Shown: positions 7,086-35,355 of the stretch, piece by piece | How the letters are laid out: every line of letters starts with the position of its first letter | Position numbering within the stretch: position 1 is the first letter of the stretch | Assembly: GCA_958296105.1 (NCBI GenBank) | Contig: OY282441.1 | Span: 1,663,585 to 1,727,584 of the forward strand | DNA: 64,000 nucleotides | Source: an uncultured Dehalococcoidia bacterium | Lineage (GTDB): Bacteria; Chloroflexota; Dehalococcoidia; Lucifugimonadales; UBA1123 | Direction: 5' to 3' | Position numbers and translations under genes: made by a program | Notes under the pieces: model-generated | Told to the model about the DNA's origin: nothing | What the model saw: the letters and a program-made list of their open reading frames with translations, nothing else | Database searches by the model: none

Positions 7086-8826
7086 TCTGCGCTCCAGTGG
7101 GTACGAAGTCGTGGGCGTATGGTCTGGTGTTCTTCGGCGCGATGCGCGGACCCAGACAGCTTCCGGTCGGGCATCTGCGCTCCTCGATGTGGGCGAGGAA
7201 GTCGGATTCGAAATGGGTCAGCGCCGATCTGATTGGGCCGAACCCCAGCTGTCCATGCCCGCACAGGGAGCTTGCCTCCATGGTGGTTCCGACGGAGCGC
7301 ATCAGGTCGAGGTCTCCCGGTCTGCTCTCGCAGCTCGCTATGCGCTCGGTGATCTCCAGCAGATGCTCCATGCCGAGCCTGCACGGGAAGCACTTTCCGC
7401 AGGATTCGAACTGGCAGAAGGCTACGAGTATGCGGGTAAGATCGACGGCGCACACGTCTTCGTCTCCGACTATTATTCCGCCGGAGCCGAGAATCGCCCC
7501 CGCATCGCGCATCTCGTCGAAGTCTATGTGAATGGCCATGCTGTCCGCGCCCAGCACGCCGCCGAGCGGCCCTCCCGTCTGGAGCAGCTTGAGCCGCTTG
7601 CCGTTCGGCACGCCTCCGCCGATGTCGTTGACCACCTCGCCGAGCGTAACGCCCATCGGCACCTCGTAAAGACCGGGGTACTCCACGTTGCCAGTCAGGC
7701 AGATGATGGCGGTGCCGGTGCTGCGGTTGACGCCGATGGAGCTGAACCACTCCGCGCCGCGCGATATGATCTCAGGCGTGTAGGAGTATGTCTTGACGTT
7801 GTTGATAGTCGAAGGGTAGCCCCACACGCCGAACGCGGCGGGGAACGGCGGGCGGTAGCGCGGCTGGGAGCGCTTGCCCTCGATTGCCTCCATCAGCGCG
7901 GTCTCCTCGCCGGCGACGTAGGATTCGCCAGTGAGCGCCACTTCTATATCGAAGCTGAAGTCCGAGCCGAAGATGTTCTCGCCAAGAACGCCAGCCTCGT
8001 ATGCCTGCCTTATCGCCTGCTCGGTTCGGTCTATGGGGCCGTCGTGTCCGTGCCTAATGAATACTATGCCGTTGGTGGCGCGCGTGGCGTAGCCGCCGAT
8101 CATCAGCCCTTCGAGCAGCGTGTGCGGGTCGCTCTCCAGGATTCCCTTGTCGTTGTACGCGCCCGGGTCGCCCTCCTCGCAGTTGCACAGCATATACTTG
8201 GGCGGGCCGGGCGAGCGCACCATGAAGCTCCACTTGACACCGGTGGGGAAGGCTGCGCCGCCGCGCCCGCGCAGTCCGGAGTCGGACACCTCCTTTATGA
8301 CGTCGTCCGGCTGCATCTGAGTCAGCGCCTTGTGGATGCCGGCGTATCCGCCGTTGGCGATGTACTGGTGGATGTCGCTCGGGGCAACGTGGCCTGCGTT
8401 TCTGAGCGCGATCCGCCGCTGGGCGCTGATGCCCGGCAGTCTGTTCAGGTCTTCTACGCCTGCTATCGGCTCGTCTCCGAGCCAGCCCAGCGCCCTGCCG
8501 CGCGGCTCAGCGCCATTGGCGATGTAGTCCGCGATTGCGCCGACGTCGGCGGCGTCCACGTTTCCGAAGAACAGCCTGCTCTTGGCTCCGGGCAGGAGAA
8601 CGTCCGCCAGCGGCTCGGCGTAGCAGATGCCAAGACAGCCGACTTCGTCTATGTTGGCGTCTATGCCGCGCCGATCCAGCTCCGCTCTCAGGGCGGCTAT
8701 CACATCGTATGCGCCCGCCGAGTGTCCGCACATGGCAGCGCCGACCCTGACCCACGGGATGGGGCCGTCCGTCAGCAGACGCCAGCGCTCGTCCGCCGCC
8801 TGCTTCAACGATTCATAGCTGGGCAT
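7078..8826 (-). CDS. NuoF-like NADH dehydrogenase flavoprotein subunit with N-terminal thioredoxin-like domain
   Basis: The ORF track gives 7078-8970. I start it at ATG 8826 (MPSYESLKQ) because the longer form overlaps the nuoE-like gene by about 100 nt. FMN/NADH motif GRGGAAFPTGVKW; 4Fe-4S motif ESCGKCFPCR. Confidence 0.85.
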   Translation of the reverse strand: MPSYESLKQAADERWRLLTDGPIPWVRVGAAMCGHSAGAYDVIAALRAELDRRGIDANIDEVGCLGICYAEPLADVLLPGAKSRLFFGNVDAADVGAIADYIANGAEPRGRALGWLGDEPIAGVEDLNRLPGISAQRRIALRNAGHVAPSDIHQYIANGGYAGIHKALTQMQPDDVIKEVSDSGLRGRGGAAFPTGVKWSFMVRSPGPPKYMLCNCEEGDPGAYNDKGILESDPHTLLEGLMIGGYATRATNGIVFIRHGHDGPIDRTEQAIRQAYEAGVLGENIFGSDFSFDIEVALTGESYVAGEETALMEAIEGKRSQPRYRPPFPAAFGVWGYPSTINNVKTYSYTPEIISRGAEWFSSIGVNRSTGTAIICLTGNVEYPGLYEVPMGVTLGEVVNDIGGGVPNGKRLKLLQTGGPLGGVLGADSMAIHIDFDEMRDAGAILGSGGIIVGDEDVCAVDLTRILVAFCQFESCGKCFPCRLGMEHLLEITERIASCESRPGDLDLMRSVGTTMEASSLCGHGQLGFGPIRSALTHFESDFLAHIEERRCPTGSCLGPRIAPKNTRPYAHDFVPTGAQNG

Positions 8827-8864
8827 TGCCAACTCCGGATGGTAGTTACTGGTGGACAGTGTGG

Positions 8865-9347
8865 CTAGTGGCTGGCATCCGTCAGATCGGCGACTCGCTC
8901 GCAGGCTGCTTCGGGCGTAAGGCGTCCGCTCAGACGGTGGTTCACGCTCATCACGGGGGCGACTGAACACGCGCCCAGGCAGGTGTTGAACTTGAAGGAG
9001 ATGCTGCCGTCCGCGGTCTCCCCTTCGTCATCTAGGCCAAGCTGGTCCATGAGCCGCCGCAATATGCGGGACGCGCCCTTCAGGTGGCAGGTAGGCCCCC
9101 AGCACACCTCTACGCTGTGCTTGCCGGGCGGCGTGAATCTGAAGTTGGTGTAGAAAGACGCCACGCCCCACACCTCGTTGATCGTGGTGTCGTTGAGCGC
9201 GGCTACCTCTTCGATCGCCTCGTCCGGCACGTAGCCCAGCTCGTCCTGCGCAGCCAGCAACGACGACAGCACCGTTACGGTGGGGCGGCGCTGGTTGTTG
9301 ATCGCTTCGAGCAGCCGCTCTCTTTCCGCTTCGCTGATGGCAGCCAA
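8865..9347 (-). CDS. NuoE-like 2Fe-2S thioredoxin-like ferredoxin subunit
   Basis: 160 aa with CWGPTCHLKG ... CLGACSVAPVM cysteine motifs. TTG start. Confidence 0.85.
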   Translation of the reverse strand: MAAISEAERERLLEAINNQRRPTVTVLSSLLAAQDELGYVPDEAIEEVAALNDTTINEVWGVASFYTNFRFTPPGKHSVEVCWGPTCHLKGASRILRRLMDQLGLDDEGETADGSISFKFNTCLGACSVAPVMSVNHRLSGRLTPEAACERVADLTDASH

Positions 9348-9406
9348 ACCGTCCCTCGCCAGCTTGAAGAATTCGTCACAATGATAACAGATAACATCAG
9401 GATTGG

Positions 9407-11203
9407 TTAGTGGCTAGTCGTCAGGACTCTCAGCTTCAGCTCGTCCAGCTGAGCCTGATCCACAGGCGAGGGCGCGCCGAACAGAGGGTCTATGCCGTTC
9501 TGCGTCTTGGGGAAGGCGATCACGTCGCGGATGTTGTCCATGCCGGTAAGCACCATCAGCAGCCTGTCTATGCCCGGCGCAATGCCGCCGTGCGGGGGAG
9601 CGCCGTACTCGAAGGCGGTGAGCAGCTGTCCGAATCGCTCCGCGACCTCCTCTTTGGTGTAGCCCAAGACCTCGAACACGCGCTCCTGAAGCTCGCGTGT
9701 GTGGATTCTGATGCTGCCGCTCGCCAGCTCGAAGCCGTTGGCTACCAGATCGTACAGGCGGCCCGTCACCCTGCCGGGGTCGGTCTCGATGTACTTTTCG
9801 GAGCCGTACTTGGGCATGGAAAAGGCGTGGTGCATGGCGTCCCATCTGCCCTCGTTCTCGTTCCACTCGAACAGCGGGAAGTCGTTGACGAACGCGAACG
9901 CGATGAGGTCGGGGCGCGCCATGTCCAGCCTGCGTCCCATCTCGTGGCGCAGGTTGCTCAGGGCTTGGTTGGTGGTCTTCTCCGCTCCCGCGACTATCAG
10001 AATCATGTCTCCCATATCCGCCCCCGTTCTGCGCGCGATCTGTCTGATCCGCTCCACGCTGAGGAAGCGCGAGGCGGCGGATCTGACCTGCGCCGCGCTC
10101 AGGTCTTCGAGCGCGCCATCGCCGTTCAGGGCGATGGTAACCAAGCCGCGCGCGCCCCACGCCTTTACGAACTCGATCAGCTCGTCGGTCTGGCGGCGCG
10201 AGTAGGCGGCGCATCCGGGCGCGCTGAACCCCTTGACGATGCCGCCGCTCTGCACGGCTCCGGTGAACACGCGAAAATCCGTGTTCGCCGCGATGTCCGA
10301 GAGATCTGCCATCTTCATGCCGAAGCGCAGATCGGGCTTGTCCGTGCCATACGATGCCATCGCCTCGGCGTATGTCAGGCGGGGGAAGGGCTTGATCAAG
10401 GATTTGTGCGGCGTTACGCTCTCGATGAGCGCGGTGTACAGACCTTCGATCAGGTCTAGTACGTCGTCCTCCTCCACGAAGCTCATTTCGAGATCGAGCT
10501 GTGTATGCTCCGGCTGGCGGTCGGCGCGCGGGTCTTCGTCTCTGAAGCAGCGCGCGATCTGGAAGTACTTCTCGACTCCCGCCGCCATGAGCAGCTGCTT
10601 GAGCTGCTGGGGAGACTGCGGCAGCGCGTAGAAGCTGCCGGGGTACAGTCGGCTGGGAACGAGGTAGTCCCTTGCGCCTTCGGGCGTACTCTTGATGAGA
10701 ATGGGCGTCTCGACTTCCAGGAAGCCGCGCTCGTCCAGATAGTCGCGGATGAACTTGACCACGCGATGGCGGAGGATGAGCATGTCGCGCATTCGGGCGC
10801 GGCGCAGATCGAGGTATCGGTACTGCATTCGCAGAAGCTCATCCACTTCCGAATCTTCGTTCACGTAGAACGGGGGCGTCAGCGATCTGTTCAGCGGCAC
10901 GGCGCGGGACGCCATCACCTCCACCTCGCCGGTGGGGATGTTTGGGTTGCGGGTGCCCTCCGGTCTCAGACGAACTTCGCCCTCCACCTGCACCACCCAC
11001 TCGCTGCGGAGCTGGCCTGCGACTTCGCAAGCCTCCGGCGCGATCTCGGGATTGAACACCACCTGAGTCAGCCCGTCTCGGTCTCTGACGTCTATGAAGA
11101 CCAGAGAGCCGTGATCCCGCCGTCGGTTGACCCAACCGGCCAGGGTGACGATCTTCCCTGCGTCTTCAGCAGTGAGACTCCCGCAGCTTGTGGACTTGAG
11201 CAA
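9407..11203 (-). CDS. aspS: Aspartate--tRNA ligase
   Basis: 598 aa with OB-fold GWVNRRRDHGSLVFIDVRDRDG, class II motifs FRDED and GGIAPGIDRL. TTG start. Confidence 0.95.
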   Translation of the reverse strand: MLKSTSCGSLTAEDAGKIVTLAGWVNRRRDHGSLVFIDVRDRDGLTQVVFNPEIAPEACEVAGQLRSEWVVQVEGEVRLRPEGTRNPNIPTGEVEVMASRAVPLNRSLTPPFYVNEDSEVDELLRMQYRYLDLRRARMRDMLILRHRVVKFIRDYLDERGFLEVETPILIKSTPEGARDYLVPSRLYPGSFYALPQSPQQLKQLLMAAGVEKYFQIARCFRDEDPRADRQPEHTQLDLEMSFVEEDDVLDLIEGLYTALIESVTPHKSLIKPFPRLTYAEAMASYGTDKPDLRFGMKMADLSDIAANTDFRVFTGAVQSGGIVKGFSAPGCAAYSRRQTDELIEFVKAWGARGLVTIALNGDGALEDLSAAQVRSAASRFLSVERIRQIARRTGADMGDMILIVAGAEKTTNQALSNLRHEMGRRLDMARPDLIAFAFVNDFPLFEWNENEGRWDAMHHAFSMPKYGSEKYIETDPGRVTGRLYDLVANGFELASGSIRIHTRELQERVFEVLGYTKEEVAERFGQLLTAFEYGAPPHGGIAPGIDRLLMVLTGMDNIRDVIAFPKTQNGIDPLFGAPSPVDQAQLDELKLRVLTTSH

Positions 11204-11256
11204 TGCGCCACCTCGAACGTGGAAATAGGGGGGCCGGCGGCCCCTCCAGCAACTAA

Positions 11257-11286
11257 ATCATAGCCGTGTTCGAGGGGGTATGTAAA
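11257..11286 (-). promoter_or_regulatory. Candidate aspS promoter
   Basis: On the minus strand, TTTACA (11286-11281), 18 nt, TATGAT (11262-11257). The leader then contains hairpin GGGGCC-gcc-GGCCCC (11244-11230) and a GAGGTGG RBS before TTG 11203. Confidence 0.5.
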
Positions 11287-11288
11287 AC

Positions 11289-11298
11289 GGGGGGGGGG
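11289..11298. repeat. G10/C10 homopolymer tract
   Basis: Ten consecutive G on the plus strand, 3 nt upstream of the aspS -35 box, flanked by G5 runs at 11274-11278 and 11307-11311. Confidence 0.9.
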
Positions 11299-11366
11299 AA
11301 GAAGACGGGGGATATCCCGAATAGCGGCGCTGACGGACGCGCAGGGGTTTGCGGCTCTGCGGCCCC

Positions 11367-11834
11367 TCAGTCAGCGCGAGGCTGACCCAGCAGCCCCAGC
11401 GTGTCCTTGCCGACGACTAGGACTGCGTTCGGTTCGGTTCGCAGGACTCCGGGTATGGCGCCGAGACGGTTTAGGAACTCGTTGAGCATCTCGGAGCTTT
11501 CCACTCCCACAAACGCCACTATGTCGTAAACGCCGGTGGTGATGGCCACGAACATCACCTCGTCCAGATCGTGCACTCGCTTCAGCACATCGTCTATTAG
11601 GCTCGGCTCGACCGTTATGTACACGATCGACGGAAAGTCTCGTCCCGAGCCGCGAGAGACGACGATGACGCGCACCTCGATAAACCCCTCGTCTATCAGC
11701 TTCTTGAGGCGGCGGCGAATGGTTCCCTCGCTCACGCAGACCTCTCGCGCTATCTTGGCGTTCGATGCGCGACCGTCACATTGAAGGACGTCTACGATGG
11801 CGATATCCAACTTGTCCATATCCGACTTGTCCAT
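11367..11834 (-). CDS. Lrp/AsnC family transcriptional regulator (full length)
   Basis: 155 aa with wHTH LDIAIVDVLQCDGRASNAKIAREVCVSEGTIRRRLKKL plus a C-terminal RAM domain. The second ATG at 11819 (MDKLDIA) is an equally good start. Confidence 0.85.
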   Translation of the reverse strand: MDKSDMDKLDIAIVDVLQCDGRASNAKIAREVCVSEGTIRRRLKKLIDEGFIEVRVIVVSRGSGRDFPSIVYITVEPSLIDDVLKRVHDLDEVMFVAITTGVYDIVAFVGVESSEMLNEFLNRLGAIPGVLRTEPNAVLVVGKDTLGLLGQPRAD

Positions 11835-15119: not shown

Positions 15120-16646
15120 CTAGCGCGCGTACTCCACGCTCCTGCTCTCGCGTATCACCATTACCTTGATCTGTCCCGGGTATACTAGCCTGTCCTCCAC
15201 CCTCTTGACGATATCCCGCGCCAGCTTGGCTGCGCTGACGTCGTCCACCGAGTCGGGTCTGACCATCACGCGCACCTCACGCCCGGCCTGTATGGCAAAG
15301 CAGCGCTCGACGCCCTCGAAGTCGCCGGCGACCTCTTCGAGCGCGCGCAGCCTCTTGATGTAGTTCTCGACCGTGTCCTTGCGCGCGCCCGGTCGCGCCG
15401 CGCTTATCGCGTCTGCCGCCGCTACGATGAACGCCTCCGGCGAGCTCATCACGTCGTCGTGGTGTTCGGCGATGCACGCGCACACCTTCCGCGCCACGTT
15501 GTACTTGCTCGCCACCTCCGCGCCGATCTCGGCGTGCGGCCCCTCCACCTCGTGGGTCAGCGCCTTGCCGATGTCGTGCAGAAGACCGCCTGCCTTGGCG
15601 ATCTTGACGTTGGCGCCGATTTCGGACGCCAGCATTCCCGCTATGTGGCAGACTTCCAGCGAGTGCTGAAGCACGTTCTCGCCGTAGCTGTATCTGAACT
15701 TCAGCCTGCCCAGTAGCCTGATGATCTCTGGATTGAGGCCGCGGACGCCTGCGTCGAAGACAGCCTCCTCTCCGGAGGACCATATAGAATCGTCGACCTC
15801 CTTCTCGGCGCGCATCACCATATCTTCGATGCGCGCCGGGTGTATCCTGCCGTCTGCGATCAACTTGCTCACAGCCAGTCTTGCGGTCTCCCGTCTGACC
15901 GGATCGAAGCAAGAGAGGGTCACGGACTCGGGCGTATCGTCGATTATCAGATCGACACCCGTACTCTTTTCGATTGCTCGTATGTTCCGTCCTTCTCGGC
16001 CTATCAGACGACCTTTCATGTCGTCACTGGGAAGGGGTACGGTCGTTACTGTCATCTCGGAGACGACGTCGGAAGCCATGCGCTGGATGGTAGTGGCGAG
16101 TATTCTGGAGGAGACCTCCTGCGCGTCCTCACGTGCCTGCTCCTCGATGTCTCGGTAGCGTCGGGCTATCTCGTGCTGCATCTCTTCCTCGGCCTGGCGC
16201 ATGAGAATGTCCTTGGCCTCGGAGGTGCTGAGCTCCGCCATCTCCTCCAACTTTGCCAGAGCCTGCTCCTTGATGTCGTCAAGCTCTTGCTCGATCTTCT
16301 CGGCTCGGCGCTCCTTCTTGGAGATGCCGCCTTCGCGCCGGTCCAGGTTGCTGGCGCGCTTTTCGAGGTTCTCCTCCCTCCTGCCAAGCCTGCGCTCCAT
16401 CTTCTTCATCTCCGAGCGATGACCTCGCAGCTCGGACTCCCAGTCCGAACGCAGCTTCAGAGCCTCTTCCTTCGCCTCGATGACGATGGTCCGCCCCTGG
16501 TCATGCGCGGTTTCTACTATATGAGCGGCCTCTGCGCGAGCGCCGTCAATGCGTCTGCCTGAAACCAGCCTGCGACCGTAATAGCCGGCTCCAGCCCCTG
16601 CCGATAGGCCTATGAGAACGGCGAGCAGTGGAATTACGATATCCAT
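15120..16646 (-). CDS. rny: Ribonuclease Y
   Basis: The ORF track extends to 17696. The real start is ATG 16646 (MDIVIPLLAVLIGL), preceded by GGAAGGTGAG. N-terminal TM helix, coiled coil, KH motif GRLIGREGRNIRAIE, HD motif LLHDIGK. Confidence 0.92.
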   Translation of the reverse strand: MDIVIPLLAVLIGLSAGAGAGYYGRRLVSGRRIDGARAEAAHIVETAHDQGRTIVIEAKEEALKLRSDWESELRGHRSEMKKMERRLGRREENLEKRASNLDRREGGISKKERRAEKIEQELDDIKEQALAKLEEMAELSTSEAKDILMRQAEEEMQHEIARRYRDIEEQAREDAQEVSSRILATTIQRMASDVVSEMTVTTVPLPSDDMKGRLIGREGRNIRAIEKSTGVDLIIDDTPESVTLSCFDPVRRETARLAVSKLIADGRIHPARIEDMVMRAEKEVDDSIWSSGEEAVFDAGVRGLNPEIIRLLGRLKFRYSYGENVLQHSLEVCHIAGMLASEIGANVKIAKAGGLLHDIGKALTHEVEGPHAEIGAEVASKYNVARKVCACIAEHHDDVMSSPEAFIVAAADAISAARPGARKDTVENYIKRLRALEEVAGDFEGVERCFAIQAGREVRVMVRPDSVDDVSAAKLARDIVKRVEDRLVYPGQIKVMVIRESRSVEYAR

Positions 16647-16706
16647 GCGACTCACCTTCCTATACATTGTCCAAAACACGCCGAACGGCGGTTTGGGAAT
16701 AGCTTC

Positions 16707-16735
16707 ATAGTAAGGTTGGGGATCCGATATGTCAA
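16707..16735 (-). promoter_or_regulatory. Candidate rny promoter
   Basis: On the minus strand, TTGACA (16735-16730), 17 nt, TACTAT (16712-16707), about 60 nt upstream of the rny ATG. Confidence 0.55.
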
Positions 16736-16906
16736 GCAGGGACAACGATGCCAGCGTGTACTTCCCACGACCGTTCTTACTGCGCGAGCGCCCCTCGCGG
16801 CCGCCTGCAATCTTCACTGTGGAAACCAGTATCACGCGCGCCGCCTGCGTCCAGACCCTATTTTCCCGTACCGCCTCCGCGTATCGAGAATGCCGACCTG
16901 CGCCTA

Positions 16907-16943
16907 TTGTATGGACATGGCGACAGTGTTGTAGAATAGCCGT
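16907..16943 (+). promoter_or_regulatory. Promoter-like block, array copy 1 (leaderless geometry)
   Basis: TTGTAT (16907-16912), 19 nt, TAGAAT (16932-16937). The -10 box ends 6 nt before ATG 16944 and there is no room for an RBS. Confidence 0.45.
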
Positions 16944-17615
16944 ATGACCCAGATGGCAGTACAGTTGGATCCCGAGTCGCTCGTCGCGCGCATCATCGCT
17001 GAGCTTCAGGCCAACCCCGAAGCTCAGCAGATGCTCCTGCGCGCGCTCCTGACCAATGAATTCTTGGGTATGCCCGCTCGCCTCGACCGAATCGAGGCGG
17101 ACATAGCCGAGATCAAGGCAAGAGTGGGGAGGCTCGAAACGAGTGTCGGAAGGCTCGAAATCAACGTAGCTCACCTCAGAGGGGACATGCTGGAAGTGAG
17201 GATAGAGCGCAGAATTCGGCCTTTGCTTAGCCAGAGACTCGGACTCCGCCGCTCGCGTATCATGCTGAGTCCAGCGTTGGACTCGGACACCGATTTCGAC
17301 GACGCAATCGAGAGGGCGCTCCGTGGCGGCGCGATAACCTCCGCGCAGGAGGCCCGCGTCTACGCCACCGATTTCATCTTGCGCGCTCAGCGCATCGCTG
17401 ACGGCTCCTCCGTATGGGCAGCCATCGAGGTGTCGAACACCATCAACTATTACGACGTGGACAGGGCGAGAGAGACCGCCGAAATTCTCGGCATTGTGTT
17501 CGGGACGGAAAGCATCGCGGTCGCCATGGGTTACAGCATCGCTCCGCAGGATCAGCGGCGCGCTGAAGATGACGGCGTCCACGCGCTTCTGGTCGATGAC
17601 GGCAGATCTCCGTAG
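16944..17615 (+). CDS. Uncharacterised coiled-coil protein, array copy 1 (223 aa, 2 heptad units)
   Basis: MTQMAVQLDPESLVARIIAELQANPEAQQMLLRALLTNEFLGMPARLDRIEADIAEIKA + RVGRLET SVGRLEI + conserved C-terminal domain ...ATDFILRAQR..VWAAIEVSNTINYYDVDRARETAEILG... Confidence 0.85.
   Translation: MTQMAVQLDPESLVARIIAELQANPEAQQMLLRALLTNEFLGMPARLDRIEADIAEIKARVGRLETSVGRLEINVAHLRGDMLEVRIERRIRPLLSQRLGLRRSRIMLSPALDSDTDFDDAIERALRGGAITSAQEARVYATDFILRAQRIADGSSVWAAIEVSNTINYYDVDRARETAEILGIVFGTESIAVAMGYSIAPQDQRRAEDDGVHALLVDDGRSP
17121..17162 (+). repeat. 21-nt heptad-coding repeat, 2 units
   Basis: Starts at codon 60 (nt 178) of copy 1: agagtggggaggctcgaaacg / agtgtcggaaggctcgaaatc. Confidence 0.9.
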
Positions 17616-17748
17616 TCTCGTTGAATCCGAGAACCGGCACCTGCCCCTCCATCTCCTACTGCCGCAGCGCCGCCTGCCATACCACCCAGGTACCACTCAC
17701 TTTTGCCGTACCGCCTCCGCGTATATCGAGAATGCCGACCTGCTCCTA

Positions 17749-17785
17749 TTGTATGGACATGGCGACAGTGTTGTAGAATAGTCGT
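17749..17785 (+). promoter_or_regulatory. Promoter-like block, array copy 2
   Basis: TTGTAT 17749-17754 and TAGAAT 17774-17779; ATG at 17786. Confidence 0.45.
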
Positions 17786-18520
17786 ATGACCCAGATGGCA
17801 GTACAGTTGAATCCCGAGTCGCTCGTCGCGCGCATCATCGCCGAGCTTCAAGCCAACCCCGAAGCTCAGCAGATGCTCTTGCGCGCGCTCCTGACCAATG
17901 AATTCTTGGGTATGCCCGCTCGCCTCGACCGAATCGAGGCGGACATAGCCGAGATCAAGGCAAGAGTCGGAAGGCTCGAAACAAGTGTCGGAAGACTTGA
18001 AACGAGTGTCGAAAGACTCGATACAAGAGTGGGGAGGCTCGAAACGAGTGTCGGAAGGCTCGAAATCAACGTAGCCCACCTCAGAGGGGACATGCTGGAA
18101 GTGAGGATAGAGCGCAGAATTCGGCCTTTGCTTAGCCAGAGACTCGGACTCCGCCGCTCGCGTATCATGCTGAGTCCAGCGTTGGACTCGGACACCGATT
18201 TCGACGACGCAATCGAGAGGGCGCTCCGTGGCGGCGCGATAACCTCCGCGCAGGAAGCCCGCGTCTACGCTACCGATTTCATCTTGCGCGCTCAGCGCAT
18301 CACTGACGGCTCATCCGTATGGGCAGCCATCGAGGTGTCGAACACCATCAACTATTACGACGTGGACAGGGCGAGAGAGACCGCCGAAATTCTCGGCATC
18401 GTGTTCGAGACGGAAAGCATCGCGGTCGCCATGGGTTACAGCATCGCTCCGCAGGATCGACGGCGCGCTGAAGACGCCGGCGTCCACGCGCTTCTGGTCG
18501 ATGACGGCAGATCTCCGTAG
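17786..18520 (+). CDS. Uncharacterised coiled-coil protein, array copy 2 (244 aa, 5 heptad units)
   Basis: Same N- and C-terminal domains as copy 1. Heptads: RVGRLET SVGRLET SVERLDT RVGRLET SVGRLEI. Confidence 0.85.
   Translation: MTQMAVQLNPESLVARIIAELQANPEAQQMLLRALLTNEFLGMPARLDRIEADIAEIKARVGRLETSVGRLETSVERLDTRVGRLETSVGRLEINVAHLRGDMLEVRIERRIRPLLSQRLGLRRSRIMLSPALDSDTDFDDAIERALRGGAITSAQEARVYATDFILRAQRITDGSSVWAAIEVSNTINYYDVDRARETAEILGIVFETESIAVAMGYSIAPQDRRRAEDAGVHALLVDDGRSP
17963..18067 (+). repeat. 21-nt heptad-coding repeat, 5 units
   Basis: Starts at codon 60 of copy 2. Confidence 0.9.
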
Positions 18521-18638
18521 TCTCGTTGAATCCGAGAACCGGCACCTGCCCCTCCATCTCCTACTGCCATACCACCCAGGTACCACTCACTTTTGCCGTA
18601 CCGCCTCCGCGTATATCGAGAATGCCGACCTGCGCCTA

Positions 18639-18675
18639 TTGTATGGACATGGCGACAGTGTTGTAGAATAGTCGT
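18639..18675 (+). promoter_or_regulatory. Promoter-like block, array copy 3
   Basis: TTGTAT 18639-18644 and TAGAAT 18664-18669; ATG at 18676. Confidence 0.45.
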
Positions 18676-19368
18676 ATGACTCAGATGGCAGTACAGTTGG
18701 ATCCCGAGTCGCTCGTCGCGCGCATCATCGCTGAGCTTCATGCCAATCCCGAAGCCCAGCAGATGCTCCTGCGCGCGCTCCTGACCAATGAGTTCTTGGG
18801 TATGCCCGCTCGCCTCGACCGAATCGAGGCGGACATAGCCGAGATCAAAACAAGTATCGAAAGACTCGATACAAGAGTGGGAAGGCTCGAAACGAGTGTC
18901 GGAAGGCTCGAAATCAACGTAGCCCACCTCAGAGGGGACATGCTGGAAGTGAGGATAGAGCGCAGAATTCGGCCTTTGCTTAGTCAGAGACTCGGACTCC
19001 GTCGCTCTCGAATCATGCTGAGTCCAGCGTTGGACTCGGACACCGATTTCGACGACGCAATCGAGAGGGCGCTCCGTGGCGGCGCGATAACATCCGCGCA
19101 GGAAGCCCGCGTCTACGCCACCGATTTCATCTTGCGCGCTCAGCGCATCACTGACGGCTCCTCCGTATGGGCAGCCATCGAGGTGTCGAACACCATCAAC
19201 CATTACGACGTGGACAGGGCGAGAGAGACCGCCGAAATTCTCGGCATCGTGTTCGAGACGGAAAGCATCGCGGTCGCCATGGGTTACAGCATCGCTCCGC
19301 AGGATCAGCAGCGCGCTGAAGACGCCGGCGTCCACGCGCTTCTGGTCGATGACGGCAGATATCCGTAG
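18676..19368 (+). CDS. Uncharacterised coiled-coil protein, array copy 3 (230 aa, 3 heptad units)
   Basis: Heptads: SIERLDT RVGRLET SVGRLEI. Otherwise near-identical to the other copies. Confidence 0.85.
   Translation: MTQMAVQLDPESLVARIIAELHANPEAQQMLLRALLTNEFLGMPARLDRIEADIAEIKTSIERLDTRVGRLETSVGRLEINVAHLRGDMLEVRIERRIRPLLSQRLGLRRSRIMLSPALDSDTDFDDAIERALRGGAITSAQEARVYATDFILRAQRITDGSSVWAAIEVSNTINHYDVDRARETAEILGIVFETESIAVAMGYSIAPQDQQRAEDAGVHALLVDDGRYP
18853..18915 (+). repeat. 21-nt heptad-coding repeat, 3 units
   Basis: Starts at codon 60 of copy 3. Confidence 0.9.
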
Positions 19369-19373
19369 TCTCG

Positions 19374-19478
19374 TTGAAGCCGCCGGTTCTCGCCTCGCTC
19401 ATCCTGGTCGCTCTGCTGGCGGTGGCGTGCAGCCAAGAACCGGCGTCTGCCGCAGCAGTGCCGCCTGCCATGTATTGA
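19374..19478 (+). pseudogene. Orphan lipoprotein signal-peptide remnant in the spacer between copies 3 and 4
   Basis: TTG-started 34-codon ORF MKPPVLASLILVALLAVACSQEPASAAAVPPAMY*, clearly homologous to the first codons of gene 21117 (MKPTAISALILIALLAVACGREPAPAPP). Confidence 0.65.
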
Positions 19479-19497
19479 GAATGCCGACCTGCGCCTA

Positions 19498-19534
19498 TTG
19501 TATGGACATGGCTACAGTGTTGTAGAATAGCCGT
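19498..19534 (+). promoter_or_regulatory. Promoter-like block, array copy 4
   Basis: TTGTAT 19498-19503 and TAGAAT 19523-19528; ATG at 19535. Confidence 0.45.
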
Positions 19535-20290
19535 ATGATCCAGATGGCAGTACAGTTGGATCCCGAGTCGCTCGTCGCGCGCATTATCGCTGAGCTTCAG
19601 GCCAACCCCGAAGCCCAGCAGATGCTCCTGCGTGCGCTCTTGACCAATGAATTCTTGGGTATGCCCGCTCGCCTCGACCGAATCGAGGCGGACATAGCCG
19701 AGATCAAGGCAAGAGTCGGAAGGCTCGAAACGAGTGTCGAAAGACTCGATACAAGAGTGGAAAGGCTCGAAACAAGTATCGAAAGACTCGATACAAGAGT
19801 GGAAAGGCTCGAAACGAGTGTCGGAAGGCTCGAAATCAACGTAGCCCATCTCAGAGGGGACATGCTGGAAGTGAGGATAGAGCGCAGAGTTCGGCCTTTG
19901 CTTAGTCAGAGACTCGGACTCCGCCGCTCTCGAATCATGCTGAGTCCAGCGTTGGACTCGGACACCGATTTCGACGACGCAATCGAGAGGGCGCTCCGTG
20001 GCGGCGCGATAACATCCGCGCAGGAAGCCCGCGTCTACGCCACCGATTTCATCTTGCGCGCTCAGCGCATCACTGACGGCTCATCCGTATGGGCAGCCAT
20101 CGAGGTGTCGAACACCATCAACCATTACGACGTGGACAGGGCGAGAGAGACCGCCGAAATTCTCGGCATCGTGTTCGGGACGGAAAGCATCGCGGTCGCC
20201 ATGGGTTACAGCGTCGCTCCGCAGGATCGGCGGCGCGCTGAAGATGACGGCGTCCACGCGCTTCTGGTCGATGACGGCAGATCTCCGTAG
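19535..20290 (+). CDS. Uncharacterised coiled-coil protein, array copy 4 (251 aa, 6 heptad units)
   Basis: Heptads: RVGRLET SVERLDT RVERLET SIERLDT RVERLET SVGRLEI. Confidence 0.85.
   Translation: MIQMAVQLDPESLVARIIAELQANPEAQQMLLRALLTNEFLGMPARLDRIEADIAEIKARVGRLETSVERLDTRVERLETSIERLDTRVERLETSVGRLEINVAHLRGDMLEVRIERRVRPLLSQRLGLRRSRIMLSPALDSDTDFDDAIERALRGGAITSAQEARVYATDFILRAQRITDGSSVWAAIEVSNTINHYDVDRARETAEILGIVFGTESIAVAMGYSVAPQDRRRAEDDGVHALLVDDGRSP
19712..19837 (+). repeat. 21-nt heptad-coding repeat, 6 units
   Basis: Starts at codon 60 of copy 4. Confidence 0.9.
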
Positions 20291-20423
20291 TCTCGTTGAA
20301 GCCGAGAACCGGCACCTGCCCCTCCATCTCCTACTGCCGCAGCGCCGCCTGCCATACCACCCAGGTACCACTCACTTTTGCCGTACCGCCTCCGCGTATA
20401 TCGAGAATGCCGACCTGCGCCTA

Positions 20424-20460
20424 TTGTATGGACATGGCTACAGTGTTGTAGAATAACCGT
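20424..20460 (+). promoter_or_regulatory. Promoter-like block, array copy 5
   Basis: TTGTAT 20424-20429 and TAGAAT 20449-20454; ATG at 20461. Confidence 0.45.
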
Positions 20461-21111
20461 ATGATCCAGATGGCAGTACAGTTGGATCCTGAGTCGCTCG
20501 TCGCGCGCATCATCGCTGAACTTCAGGCCAACCCCGAAGCTCAGCAGATGCTCCTGCGCGCGCTCCTGACCAATGAGTTCTTGGGTATGCCCGCTCGCCT
20601 CGACCGAATCGAGGCGGACATAGCCGAGATCAAGGCAAGAGTGGGGAGGCTCGAAATCAACGTAGCCCATCTCAGAGGAGACATGCTGGAAGTGAGGATA
20701 GAGCGCAGAATTCGGCCTTTGCTTAGCCAGAGACTCGGACTCCGCCGCTCGCGTATCATGCTGAGTCCAGCGTTGGACTCGGACACCAATTTCGACGACG
20801 CAATCGAGAGGGCGCTCCGTGGCGGCGCGATAACATCCGCGCAGGAAGCCCGCGTCTACGCCACCGATTTCATCTTGCGCGCTCAGCGCATCACTGACGG
20901 CTCATCCGTATGGGCAGCCATCGAGGTGTCGAACACCATCAACCATTACGACGTGGACAGGGCGAGAGAGACCGCCGAAATTCTCGGCATCGTGTTCGAG
21001 ACGGAAAGCATCGCGGTCGCCATGGGTTACAGCATCGCTCCGCAGGATCGGCGGCGCGCTGAAGATGACGGCGTCCACGCGCTTCTGGTCGATGACGGCA
21101 GATCTCCGTAG
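20461..21111 (+). CDS. Uncharacterised coiled-coil protein, array copy 5 (216 aa, 1 heptad unit)
   Basis: Single heptad RVGRLEI. The stop TAG lies 5 nt before the TTG start of the downstream lipoprotein gene. Confidence 0.85.
   Translation: MIQMAVQLDPESLVARIIAELQANPEAQQMLLRALLTNEFLGMPARLDRIEADIAEIKARVGRLEINVAHLRGDMLEVRIERRIRPLLSQRLGLRRSRIMLSPALDSDTNFDDAIERALRGGAITSAQEARVYATDFILRAQRITDGSSVWAAIEVSNTINHYDVDRARETAEILGIVFETESIAVAMGYSIAPQDRRRAEDDGVHALLVDDGRSP
20638..20658 (+). repeat. 21-nt heptad-coding unit, single
   Basis: Starts at codon 60 of copy 5. Confidence 0.85.
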
Positions 21112-21116
21112 TCTCG

Positions 21117-22571
21117 TTGAAACCGACAGCGATCTCAGCACTCATCCTGATCGCTCTGCTGGCGGTGGCGTGCGGCAGAGAACCGGCGCCTGCCCCTCCA
21201 TCTCCGATCGCAGCAGCTCCGTCTGAGCCTCCGATTGCCGTCCCCACCGCCACCGCGATCCCCACGCCGCCGCCCACGTCCACACCTGCGCCCACGTCCA
21301 CGCCTGCGCCCACACCCACGTTCACGCCTCCCCCTGCCATACTGCCCACCGCCCAGCTGCCGCTGGAGACTGTCACGCCCACCACCGGCGCGCCGCCGAA
21401 CATCGAGCGCAAGCTGGACGCAATCGCCTTGACGACCTCGGCCATACGCGATCTGTCCGCGCTCGGCCCGGTGGAGCGGCAGCTGCTCAGCAAGGAGGAG
21501 CTGCGCGCGCTGCTGGCTGAGGACTTCGAGGAAGAAGCCGAGTCCGTCGCCATCGCGGGGCGGCTGTACGCGAGACTCGGAATCATCGAGCCGGACGTAG
21601 ATCTTGGCGACCTGCTCGTCGACGTGTTCAGCGACGTCGTAGTCGGGCTGTTCGACACGGAAGACGAGATACTCTACGTAGCCGCCGACGAAGACGGCTT
21701 CTCACTCGAGAACGAGCTGACCGTGGCGCACGAGTTCGCGCACAGCCTTCAGCAGGCGCACTTCGACATCTATGCGCTGGCGCAGAGCGTGGAGGACAAC
21801 TCCGACCGCAGCGCCGCACTCAGAGCGCTCGTGGAAGGCGACGCCACGATTACGGACTACATCTACTACCTCGAAGTCTTCAGCGAGTATGAGCAGCAGA
21901 CGCTCCGCGAGCAGCGCGCGGACAGCGAGCCGCCATCCGCGTTCTTGGGCGCGCCCGTGTTCATACAGCGAACCATTGCGTTCCCATACGTAGATGGGCG
22001 GCAGTTCGCCGTCAGCCTGTACACGCGCAGCGGCGATTTCTCCGCCATAGACGCGGCATACGAGGCGCTTCCCGCATCCACAGAGCAGATCATCCATCCC
22101 GACAAGTACGGCGTCGAGCAGCCCGTGTCCGTGGACGTGCCGGATGTTGCCGCCATACTCGGCGAGGACTGGTCCGAGGTGGAGCGCGACGTCATGGGCG
22201 AGCTGTTCTTCAGGTCTCTTCTGGAAAACCAGAGCGGAACCAGAGCATACGCCGGCGAGTCCGCCGCAGGGTGGGGCGGCGATGGCTACGCGCTTCTGGA
22301 GAGTCCGTCATCCGAAGACGCCCTCGTCTCGCTCAGCGTTTGGGACACGCAGGAGGAGGCCGCCGAGGTCGCGGCCGCGCTTCGGGCTTACTTCGCGGTG
22401 CTGGCCGGCGCCAAGTGGGAGCGGGCTGAAGACACGGACGCCGCCACGCTCCGCCTGTTCGCGGAGGGAACGGCAGCCGAGCTGCGCGAACAGGGGCGGG
22501 AAGTACGCCTGATCATCGCAGGCTCGGCTGACGATCTGGAAGCGATATCGGCTGCGCTCAGCGGCCAGTAA
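21117..22571 (+). CDS. Putative lipoprotein zinc metalloprotease (HExxH, MA-clan-like) with PT-rich linker
   Basis: 484 aa. TTG start, signal peptide plus Cys (LLAVAC), linker PTPPPTSTPAPTSTPAPTPTFTPPP, motif LTVAHEFAHSLQ and downstream LVEGDAT. Confidence 0.7.
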   Translation: MKPTAISALILIALLAVACGREPAPAPPSPIAAAPSEPPIAVPTATAIPTPPPTSTPAPTSTPAPTPTFTPPPAILPTAQLPLETVTPTTGAPPNIERKLDAIALTTSAIRDLSALGPVERQLLSKEELRALLAEDFEEEAESVAIAGRLYARLGIIEPDVDLGDLLVDVFSDVVVGLFDTEDEILYVAADEDGFSLENELTVAHEFAHSLQQAHFDIYALAQSVEDNSDRSAALRALVEGDATITDYIYYLEVFSEYEQQTLREQRADSEPPSAFLGAPVFIQRTIAFPYVDGRQFAVSLYTRSGDFSAIDAAYEALPASTEQIIHPDKYGVEQPVSVDVPDVAAILGEDWSEVERDVMGELFFRSLLENQSGTRAYAGESAAGWGGDGYALLESPSSEDALVSLSVWDTQEEAAEVAAALRAYFAVLAGAKWERAEDTDAATLRLFAEGTAAELREQGREVRLIIAGSADDLEAISAALSGQ

Positions 22572-35279: not shown

Positions 35280-35355
35280 CGGGGCGTAGCGCAGTCGGTA
35301 GCGCGCCACGTTCGGGACGTGGAGGTCGCTGGTTCAAGTCCAGTCGCCCCGACCA
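35280..35355 (+). tRNA. tRNA-Pro (anticodon CGG), CCA encoded
   Basis: Acceptor stem CGGGGCG/CGCCCCG, D-arm AGCGCAGTCGGTAGCGC, anticodon arm CCACG-TTCGGGA-CGTGG, T-arm GCTGGTTCAAGTCCAGT, discriminator A plus CCA. Confidence 0.9.

Follow-up and report, generated by a model that had tools for sequence, protein, structure and literature searches.

A 64,000-nt stretch of contig OY282441.1 from an uncultured Dehalococcoidia bacterium (hereafter the window, with positions counted from its first letter) carries five intact plus-strand open reading frames (ORFs) of 223, 244, 230, 251 and 216 amino acids (aa), arranged head-to-tail. The rny gene lies upstream on the minus strand, and the array is followed by a gene for a 484-aa lipoprotein-like protein and then by ffh and hrcA. 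The five copies share 97–98% pairwise identity, and their sole length difference in the alignment is one tract after K58. Read from codon 60, this tract comprises 2, 5, 3, 6 and 1 units of 21 nt in array order, and the proteins measure 216+7n aa, with n = 1, 4, 2, 5 and 0. Each unit encodes a heptad of the consensus (R/S)(V/I)(G/E)RL(E/D)(T/I), with V/I at position a and L at position d. An initial annotation, made from the sequence alone, had described these near-identical same-strand paralogs, their unit counts and their length rule, all of which were recovered from the ORF list, the alignment and unit splitting; Tandem Repeats Finder independently returned the period-21 arrays. The common tract start that it proposed held in the frame it had used, with units counted from codon 60, but not at the residue level in copy 3, whose residues 59–60 are not A-R and whose first unit reads TSIERLD.

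Repeat homology starts at position 16861 with an upstream segment (16861–16943) that recurs before every copy. It leads into copy 1 (16944–17615; 223 aa), the two heptad units of which occupy 17118–17159. Copy 2 (17786–18520; 244 aa, five units at 17960–18064), copy 3 (18676–19368; 230 aa, three units at 18850–18912), copy 4 (19535–20290; 251 aa, six units at 19709–19834) and copy 5 (20461–21111; 216 aa, one unit at 20635–20655) follow on the same strand; the tracts of copies 2 to 4 were also called by Tandem Repeats Finder, and copies 4 and 5 were modelled with AlphaFold2. Between copies 1 and 2 (17616–17785) and again between copies 4 and 5 (20291–20460) lies a spacer of type A, in which two pieces left from the downstream gene's 5′ end, of 36 nt and 28 nt (matching 21091–21126 and 21178–21205), precede the putative promoter segment. 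The spacer between copies 2 and 3 (18521–18675) also holds both pieces and is of the same type, less a 15-nt deletion. That between copies 3 and 4 (19369–19534; type B) instead retains ~78 nt from the start of the lipoprotein-like gene, where its signal peptide is encoded, with positions 19348–19451 matching 21091–21194 at 84.6%. Every spacer then continues with a ~70-nt segment seen upstream of copy 1. The lipoprotein-like gene itself (21117–22571, plus strand; HEFAH motif) lies outside the family, and its 5′ end marks the duplication junctions.

Each copy lacks a Shine-Dalgarno sequence and keeps a promoter-like sequence, TTGTAT and TAGAAT separated by 19 nt, that stops 8 nt short of the ATG. 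On reading, we consider it a putative promoter; a simple promoter scan does not call it, as the 19-nt spacer is outside the range of the scanner. Because the site lies so close to the start codon and a Shine-Dalgarno sequence is lacking, the mRNAs of the array copies may be leaderless. An imperfect inverted repeat (CTATTGTA ... TAGAATAG; positions 16900–16940 and the equivalent before each copy) brackets the promoter-like segment and could be an operator. At this position of all five spacers, the scanner also called TCTACA-18-TACAAT on the minus strand. A terminator scan returned no convincing terminators between copies, and Rfam and tRNA scans detected no feature inside the array.

A contig deposited in ENA (ERZ19489113 ptg011506l; L001) carries a three-copy array at the corresponding position, with rny on one side and the lipoprotein-like gene on the other, in flanks 97–98% identical to those of the window. 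Its copies of 223, 237 and 251 aa contain 2, 4 and 6 units and thus include the 4-unit rung (237 aa) that is absent from the window array. The 6-unit tract of L001 consists of a duplicated 3-unit block and differs from that of window copy 4. Near-conspecific genomes therefore differ in both copy number and unit content. The comparison of the rny-to-ffh interval that had been proposed at the outset thus recovered the array at its site, but with other copy and unit numbers (three copies; 2/4/6). The name ptg011506l suggests a hifiasm long-read assembly. Within the array, 45 of 630 non-repeat positions differ among copies in a mosaic pattern.

Since the spacers carry pieces of the downstream gene, the array represents a segmental duplication, and a duplicated unit made up of promoter segment, ORF and neighbour gene start is a signature of unequal crossover. 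Unequal recombination duplicated the promoter segment, the ORF and the first 80–100 nt of the downstream gene, as the junction sequences show. Across the eight copies of the window and L001, the ratio of non-synonymous to synonymous differences per site (pN/pS) ranged from 0.07 to 0.26 at a pS of 0.05–0.10, with variants shared mosaically. The copies are maintained rather than decaying duplicates, and their age is sufficient for a tract that mutates fast to have diverged. All copies are under purifying selection, with pN/pS at about 0.15 overall. The locus is thus a tandem amplification, variable between strains, of a single solitary chromosomal gene, which belongs to a large, uncharacterised bacterial family.

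AlphaFold2 monomer models of the 216-aa and 251-aa copies reached a mean predicted local distance difference test (pLDDT) score of 86.0 and 86.9, respectively. Each protein consists of a conserved head, a helical stalk of four to nine heptads and a restriction-endonuclease-like domain. The head is an acidic N-terminal module with three short predicted helices (residues 10–41) and the most conserved region of the protein, with 16 invariant and 13 nearly invariant (≥90%) positions among its first 44 residues. The stalk is modelled as a single continuous helix that spans residues 43–74 in the 216-aa copy and 43–109 in the 251-aa copy (32 vs. 67 residues), with a pLDDT of 94–97 in the repeat part of the latter; the five extra heptads of the longer copy lengthen this one helix by exactly 35 residues. 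From the two models and the protein lengths, the stalk helices of the five copies would measure 32, 39, 46, 60 and 67 residues, or about 5–10 nm at 0.15 nm per residue if fully helical. A register with V/I/L at a and L/I at d can be followed without interruption from L47 up to the invariant L-(R/K)-G-D closing the helix in all copies, and both sequence and models thus present the unbroken heptads within a continuous helix that are expected of a coiled coil. The initial division into a conserved N-terminal module, a graded heptad rod and a C-terminal globular domain is accordingly reproduced by the models.

After an invariant Gly-Asp kink, the chain enters a compact alpha/beta domain (residues 76–209 in the 216-aa copy; pLDDT >90). 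Its predicted topology, as we read it, comprises alpha-1 (76–92), beta-1 (94–101), two inserted helices, beta-2 (137–143), beta-3 (149–156), alpha-2 and beta-4, with acidic residues at the canonical sites of PD-(D/E)xK nucleases: E77 in alpha-1, D136 before beta-2 and E155-x-S157 in beta-3. E77 and D136 are invariant across the family alignment and E155 nearly so (≥90%). Of the searches that the initial annotation had called for, those against profiles returned no Pfam family, and Foldseek placed the C-terminal domain in the PD-(D/E)xK fold. Matches in the PDB were almost all to this fold (prob. 0.95–1.0; MspJI, EndoMS/NucS, Cdn1/Can2, BbvCI, NucC, Ecl18kI and PspGI), while those in the viral library BFVD were to restriction endonuclease, Mrr and RPB5-like proteins. 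The predicted structure thus contains the core of a PD-(D/E)xK fold, and catalysis by this domain is plausible.

A word-indexed search returned 1179 homologues at 40–60% identity, nearly all nameless, and an exhaustive profile search gave 133, 909 and 2271 clusters (defined at 50% identity) at E ≤ 1e-30, 1e-10 and 1e-3, respectively. Head and C-terminal domain persist in distant members, which carry other repeat types and are nameless as well; in a second homologue search, started from the distant member P0282, every match was a "hypothetical protein". Searches of Pfam, NCBIfam, PADLOC and PHROGs with the array copies, 40 homologues and 10 distant members produced no match at threshold, only coiled-coil noise, and a sequence-profile search of the PDB produced only designed or GCN4-type coiled coils. 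DUF6602 (PF20247) matched the C-terminal domain of the window copies weakly (E 0.05–0.2) and appeared in only 2 of 40 family members; membership was rejected as the scores (12–14 bits) fell far below the gathering score of 27. We found no description of the family in the literature. The family is new to curated databases, and the early remark that no such system had been described stands, with no curated family or paper on these proteins found; placement in a well-characterised family, which would have spoken against novelty, did not result from the profile searches.

Metagenome-assembled genomes (MAGs) encoding the family were surveyed in a species-representative genome collection and fell into six phylum- or class-level groups: Dehalococcoidia and other Chloroflexota, Latescibacterota, Vicinamibacterales and other Acidobacteriota, Spirochaetia, Gammaproteobacteria, and Binatia. 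This list resembles the marine-sponge symbiont consortium, for which enrichment and lateral exchange of defence genes are described (PMC8163846), and judging from their record names, the MAGs are probably of sponge origin. For 11 of 78 proteins the nearest relative was found in another phylum, with cross-phylum identities of up to 81–85%, supporting lateral transfer. Genomes often contain several dispersed copies that share only the ORF and 50–115 nt upstream. At one locus, a ~155-aa ORF (L026:9366–9917, plus strand) directly upstream of a full-length family gene matches only the nuclease-like C-terminal domain (hmmsearch E = 4e-15; motifs TDYIL ... AFEVSRKV). It lacks both head and stalk and could represent a paralogue without a stalk, or a partner.

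Heptad number proved labile throughout the family. Measured as the distance between two conserved anchors, the stalk region was 37+7n residues long (n = 0–12) in 126 of 126 close homologues, with the 216-aa copy at the family minimum; among more distant representatives, a few lengths fell off this series, e.g. 48 (37+11). One cluster at ≥90% identity spans proteins of 229, 236, 243, 250, 271, 278 and 285 aa. Syntenic orthologues, compared only at loci where the tract ends at a true L-K-G boundary, have stalks of 42 residues in L030 vs. 70 in L064, and of 49, 77, 42 and 28 residues in L008, L052, L012 and L004, respectively. Unit number thus varies between very close relatives while the flanks are conserved, as in a coding variable-number tandem repeat. 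Only three of the 82 loci examined hold full-length copies in tandem, namely those in the window (five copies), in L001 (three) and, as an independent pair of 235 and 221 aa two heptads apart, in a Spirochaetia MAG (L076); 77 are single-copy. Five lengths would all be distinct with P = 0.145 under the family-wide distribution and P = 0.06 if the range is restricted to 0–5 extra heptads, so the observation that no two copies are equal holds here but goes only weakly beyond chance.

Given this lability, the ladder is a property of the repeat, not of the locus. In every lineage of the family, slippage or unequal exchange would add whole units to the 21-nt coding minisatellite or remove them, and duplicated copies would quickly drift to different heptad numbers. 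The variability in stalk length is plain from the alignments, and slippage or unequal exchange is the mechanism we infer. Repeat slippage in a gene that was amplified recently, rather than a purpose-built set of rulers, best accounts for the unequal stalks, and the ladder is probably a by-product. The initial view of a locus organised as a ladder is therefore not supported, given the family-wide heptad lability, the excess of single-copy loci, the three copies of L001, spacers typical of ordinary segmental duplication and P values of 0.06–0.15. Neutral slippage in decaying genes had been named as what arbitrary, frame-disrupted unit numbers in relatives would imply; the numbers are indeed arbitrary and vary between close relatives, but they never disrupt the frame, and the pN/pS values show that the genes are not decaying. 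The unit variant coding for TSIERLD holds a near-perfect palindrome, GTATCGA..TCGATAC (18854–18872 and 19776–19794, minus strand), which the scanner flagged as a hairpin and which could promote slippage of the tract.

Several features around family loci were noted. A regulator combining CARF (Cas_NE0113), sigma54 AAA and HTH_8 domains, RtcR-like according to PADLOC, immediately follows the family gene in two MAGs of Latescibacterota (L002:11040–12785 and L003:10832–12652). It was rejected as a partner, as it adjoins the gene only at these two loci; at L024, L039 and L064 its homologues are several kb distant, making the adjacency probably a coincidence. Synteny with ffh in other Dehalococcoidia was likewise rejected, for the 444-aa ORF downstream of the L026 gene had no similarity to ffh on direct comparison. 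In L069, two ORFs with near-identical N-termini (…LRDWLHAYR.GGFDALYPKPRADRGRPRRLP…; 8813–9739 and 10847–11440) stand on either side of the family gene. Both resemble the helix-turn-helix regions of transposases and are probably insertion sequence (IS) remnants. Four loci of one Dehalococcoidia MAG (L021, L028, L055 and L074; CBDCOF010000002.1) contain many intergenic repeats of 28–135 nt at 80–100% identity, which look like repetitive extragenic palindromic (REP) or miniature inverted-repeat transposable elements (MITEs) unrelated to the family gene.

At the window locus itself, the 484-aa protein combines a lipoprotein-like signal (…LLAVAC), a linker rich in Pro and Thr whose coding sequence contains 18-nt repeats (21261–21328), and the HEFAH sequence, an HExxH motif. 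Its counterpart in L001 (10762–12234) has no Pfam match on record there, and a 6-aa indel in the linker between the two genomes is a second repeat polymorphism at this locus. The rny ORF (15120–17696, minus strand) was mechanically extended to 858 aa antisense through copy 1, compared to 571 aa in the L001 gene call; the long antisense shadow ORFs over every copy are a high-GC artefact. The only Rfam/ARAGORN feature of the whole window is a tRNA-Pro (CGG) at 35280–35355 (plus strand).

As to function, the stalk probably pairs as a parallel coiled-coil dimer, or possibly a trimer; V at a together with L at d is compatible with either. Paired nuclease-like domains would then be held at a fixed register from the N-terminal heads, and the reach or geometry of the protein on its DNA or RNA target would depend on heptad number. 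Amplification would raise dosage and, as a by-product or bonus, provide isoforms whose stalk helices span 32 to 67 residues. An oligomeric nucleic-acid enzyme with stalk-set geometry is our best guess, and use in genome conflict or defence would be the most plausible setting. Taken as a whole, an amplified gene with a heptad minisatellite, encoding an oligomeric protein of nuclease fold whose geometry is set by its stalk, is the explanation we favour and consider reasonably probable.

Several observations weigh against this account. The canonical Lys of the (D/E)xK motif is Ser in most members and Ala in the Spirochaetia copies, the E-values of the Foldseek matches are modest (3e-3 to 0.5), and no sequence profile ties the C-terminal domain to a known nuclease family. 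By our own reading of the sequence, the acidic N-terminal module appears unlike a DNA-binding domain. Clustering of the flanking ORFs of 80 loci yielded no conserved partner, the recurrent neighbours being common metabolic paralogues; 136 immediate neighbours were mostly metabolic or housekeeping genes without a defence-island signal, and only two of them contained a DNA methylase domain. PADLOC did not match the protein beyond coiled-coil noise, a failure to match known defence systems that is compatible with a new defence gene, and searches of GenBank phages, PLSDB plasmids and IMG/VR did not find the family. Modification-reading or DNA-recognition domains were not detected in the protein, which thus shows neither these nor a linked methyltransferase, the marks of a Type II or Type IV restriction-modification system. 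Finally, if the ladder is selected, our account understates it; within each of the arrays of five, three and two copies, the lengths are all unequal.

With respect to the array, repeats of ~850–920 bp at 96–98% identity are a classic hazard for short-read assemblies, and the initial annotation had warned that one or two real copies might have been expanded by mis-assembly. This is extremely unlikely in view of the 45 variable sites with private substitutions in each copy, the individual arrangement of unit variants, the two spacer types plus one 15-nt spacer deletion, the 3.18-Mb source contig and the independent array at the same site in L001. A mobile cassette, in which the promoter-ORF unit spreads between and within genomes like a homing endonuclease or an addiction element and the array marks a local burst, would account for dispersed paralogues in one genome that are 87–97% identical over the ORF and its 50–115 nt upstream only, for the high cross-phylum identities and for the IS-like fragments beside the L069 copy. 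It would also suit the lower GC content of the array (0.58–0.60 for window positions 17000–21000 vs. 0.62–0.66 in the flanking 4 kb), a difference that fits either acquired DNA or repeat composition. Yet the family encodes no transposase or integrase, no terminal repeats were noticed, many loci are stably syntenic within lineages, the phage, plasmid and viral collections gave no match, and the tandem junctions are ordinary unequal-crossover products with host-gene fragments; we regard such a cassette as very unlikely. Alternatively, the array might be kept because the cell needs graded stalk lengths, as rulers, spacers or staggered hetero-oligomers, with selection keeping the copies unequal. 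The all-different lengths in the window, L001 and L076 speak for this, as do the integrity of every copy, each with its own conserved upstream segment and under purifying selection, the strict heptad quantisation in close homologues, which shows that register matters, and the precedent of Type I HsdS, where coiled-coil repeat number retunes DNA target spacing (PMC3874165). Weighed against the chance expectation given above, with the window and L001 not independent, the 77 single-copy loci, the differing copy number and unit content of genomes 97–98% identical in the flanks, the missing 4-unit rung and a 21-nt unit that makes in-frame changes automatic, a selected ladder appears distinctly unlikely.

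With respect to the protein, the replaced Lys (E-x-S or E-x-A) is also what an inactivated nuclease fold would show, one that binds nucleic acid or protein within a tethering coiled-coil protein whose head docks to a partner. The strong conservation of the N-terminal 45 residues, the presence of non-catalytic RPB5-like folds among the structural matches and the housekeeping or metabolic genomic contexts are consistent with such a non-catalytic scaffold. We nevertheless judge it unlikely, if by no means negligible, as the three acidic residues occupy canonical positions, with E77 and D136 invariant and E155 nearly so, and several real nucleases replace the Lys; BamHI and BglII are working nucleases without it. 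In the opposite direction, the proteins could form a new class of stand-alone, distance-measuring nucleic-acid enzymes, in which the head anchors to a target or partner, the paired nuclease domains work at a distance of one stalk and slippage, as an inbuilt form of contingency, retunes the reach in ~1-nm steps. The array would then hold five reaches at once in one cell, and the ladder would be selected for breadth; a distribution over unrelated phyla with a common habitat, probably marine sponges, would suit a part in genome conflict. Drawn by analogy to repeat changes in HsdS that retune Type I specificity, this extension of the stalk-set geometry is speculative, and we consider it improbable.

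The family, with at least 900 clusters at 50% identity, has neither a curated model nor a source naming it, and lateral transfer has carried it between phyla whose common habitat appears to be marine sponges. What is new here is a protein with a predicted PD-(D/E)xK fold and a hypervariable heptad stalk, whose length changes strictly in whole heptads and evolves very fast, a combination that constitutes a natural experiment on coiled-coil length versus enzyme geometry. Should stalk length indeed set reach or spacing, the family would represent a programmable-spacer nuclease and a form of contingency variation acting on protein geometry rather than expression. If not, it is a well-documented case of gene amplification and a coding minisatellite mimicking a designed series.

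Known systems share individual traits with the array proteins. In streptococcal M proteins and the stalks of trimeric autotransporters, in-frame heptad repeats vary between close strains by slippage or recombination. These are secreted surface proteins under immune selection, whereas the array proteins end in a nuclease-like domain and have, by eye, no signal-peptide-like hydrophobic N-terminus (no predictor was run); the surface-variation role raised initially is hence unlikely. RmuC (PF02646), the product of a stand-alone chromosomal recombination gene, combines an N-terminal coiled coil with a following PD-(D/E)xK domain and is the closest architectural analogue. It is larger and without sequence relationship: PF02646 matched neither the window copies nor 40 homologues, and one distant member only below threshold and over the coiled coil. 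We know of no report of heptad-number hypervariability in RmuC.

The C-terminal domain resembles the PD-(D/E)xK superfamily in its predicted alpha-beta-beta-beta-alpha-beta core, its acidic residues at the canonical sites (E77, D136 and E155) and its Foldseek matches (prob. ~1), the nearest solved folds being the MspJI catalytic domain, EndoMS/NucS, Can2/Cdn1, NucC and BbvCI. It departs from that superfamily in having no Pfam, NCBIfam or PADLOC profile match, Ser or Ala in place of Lys, two helices between beta-1 and beta-2, and a fused hypervariable stalk with a novel head. In the TAEL repeats of HsdS (EcoR124I/II and EcoDXXI), one extra repeat shifts the recognised spacer from N6 to N7 (PMC3874165). 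The HsdS repeat is 4 aa long, forms an antiparallel coiled coil between two DNA-recognition domains and works with the partners HsdM and HsdR, whereas the array unit is 7 aa long and the proteins come without partner genes or a recognisable DNA-recognition domain. In HsdS, the number of short in-frame coiled-coil repeats sets the distance between functional domains and with it the DNA target geometry, as stalk length might in the array proteins, and HsdS thus provides the best precedent for how a variable stalk could matter.

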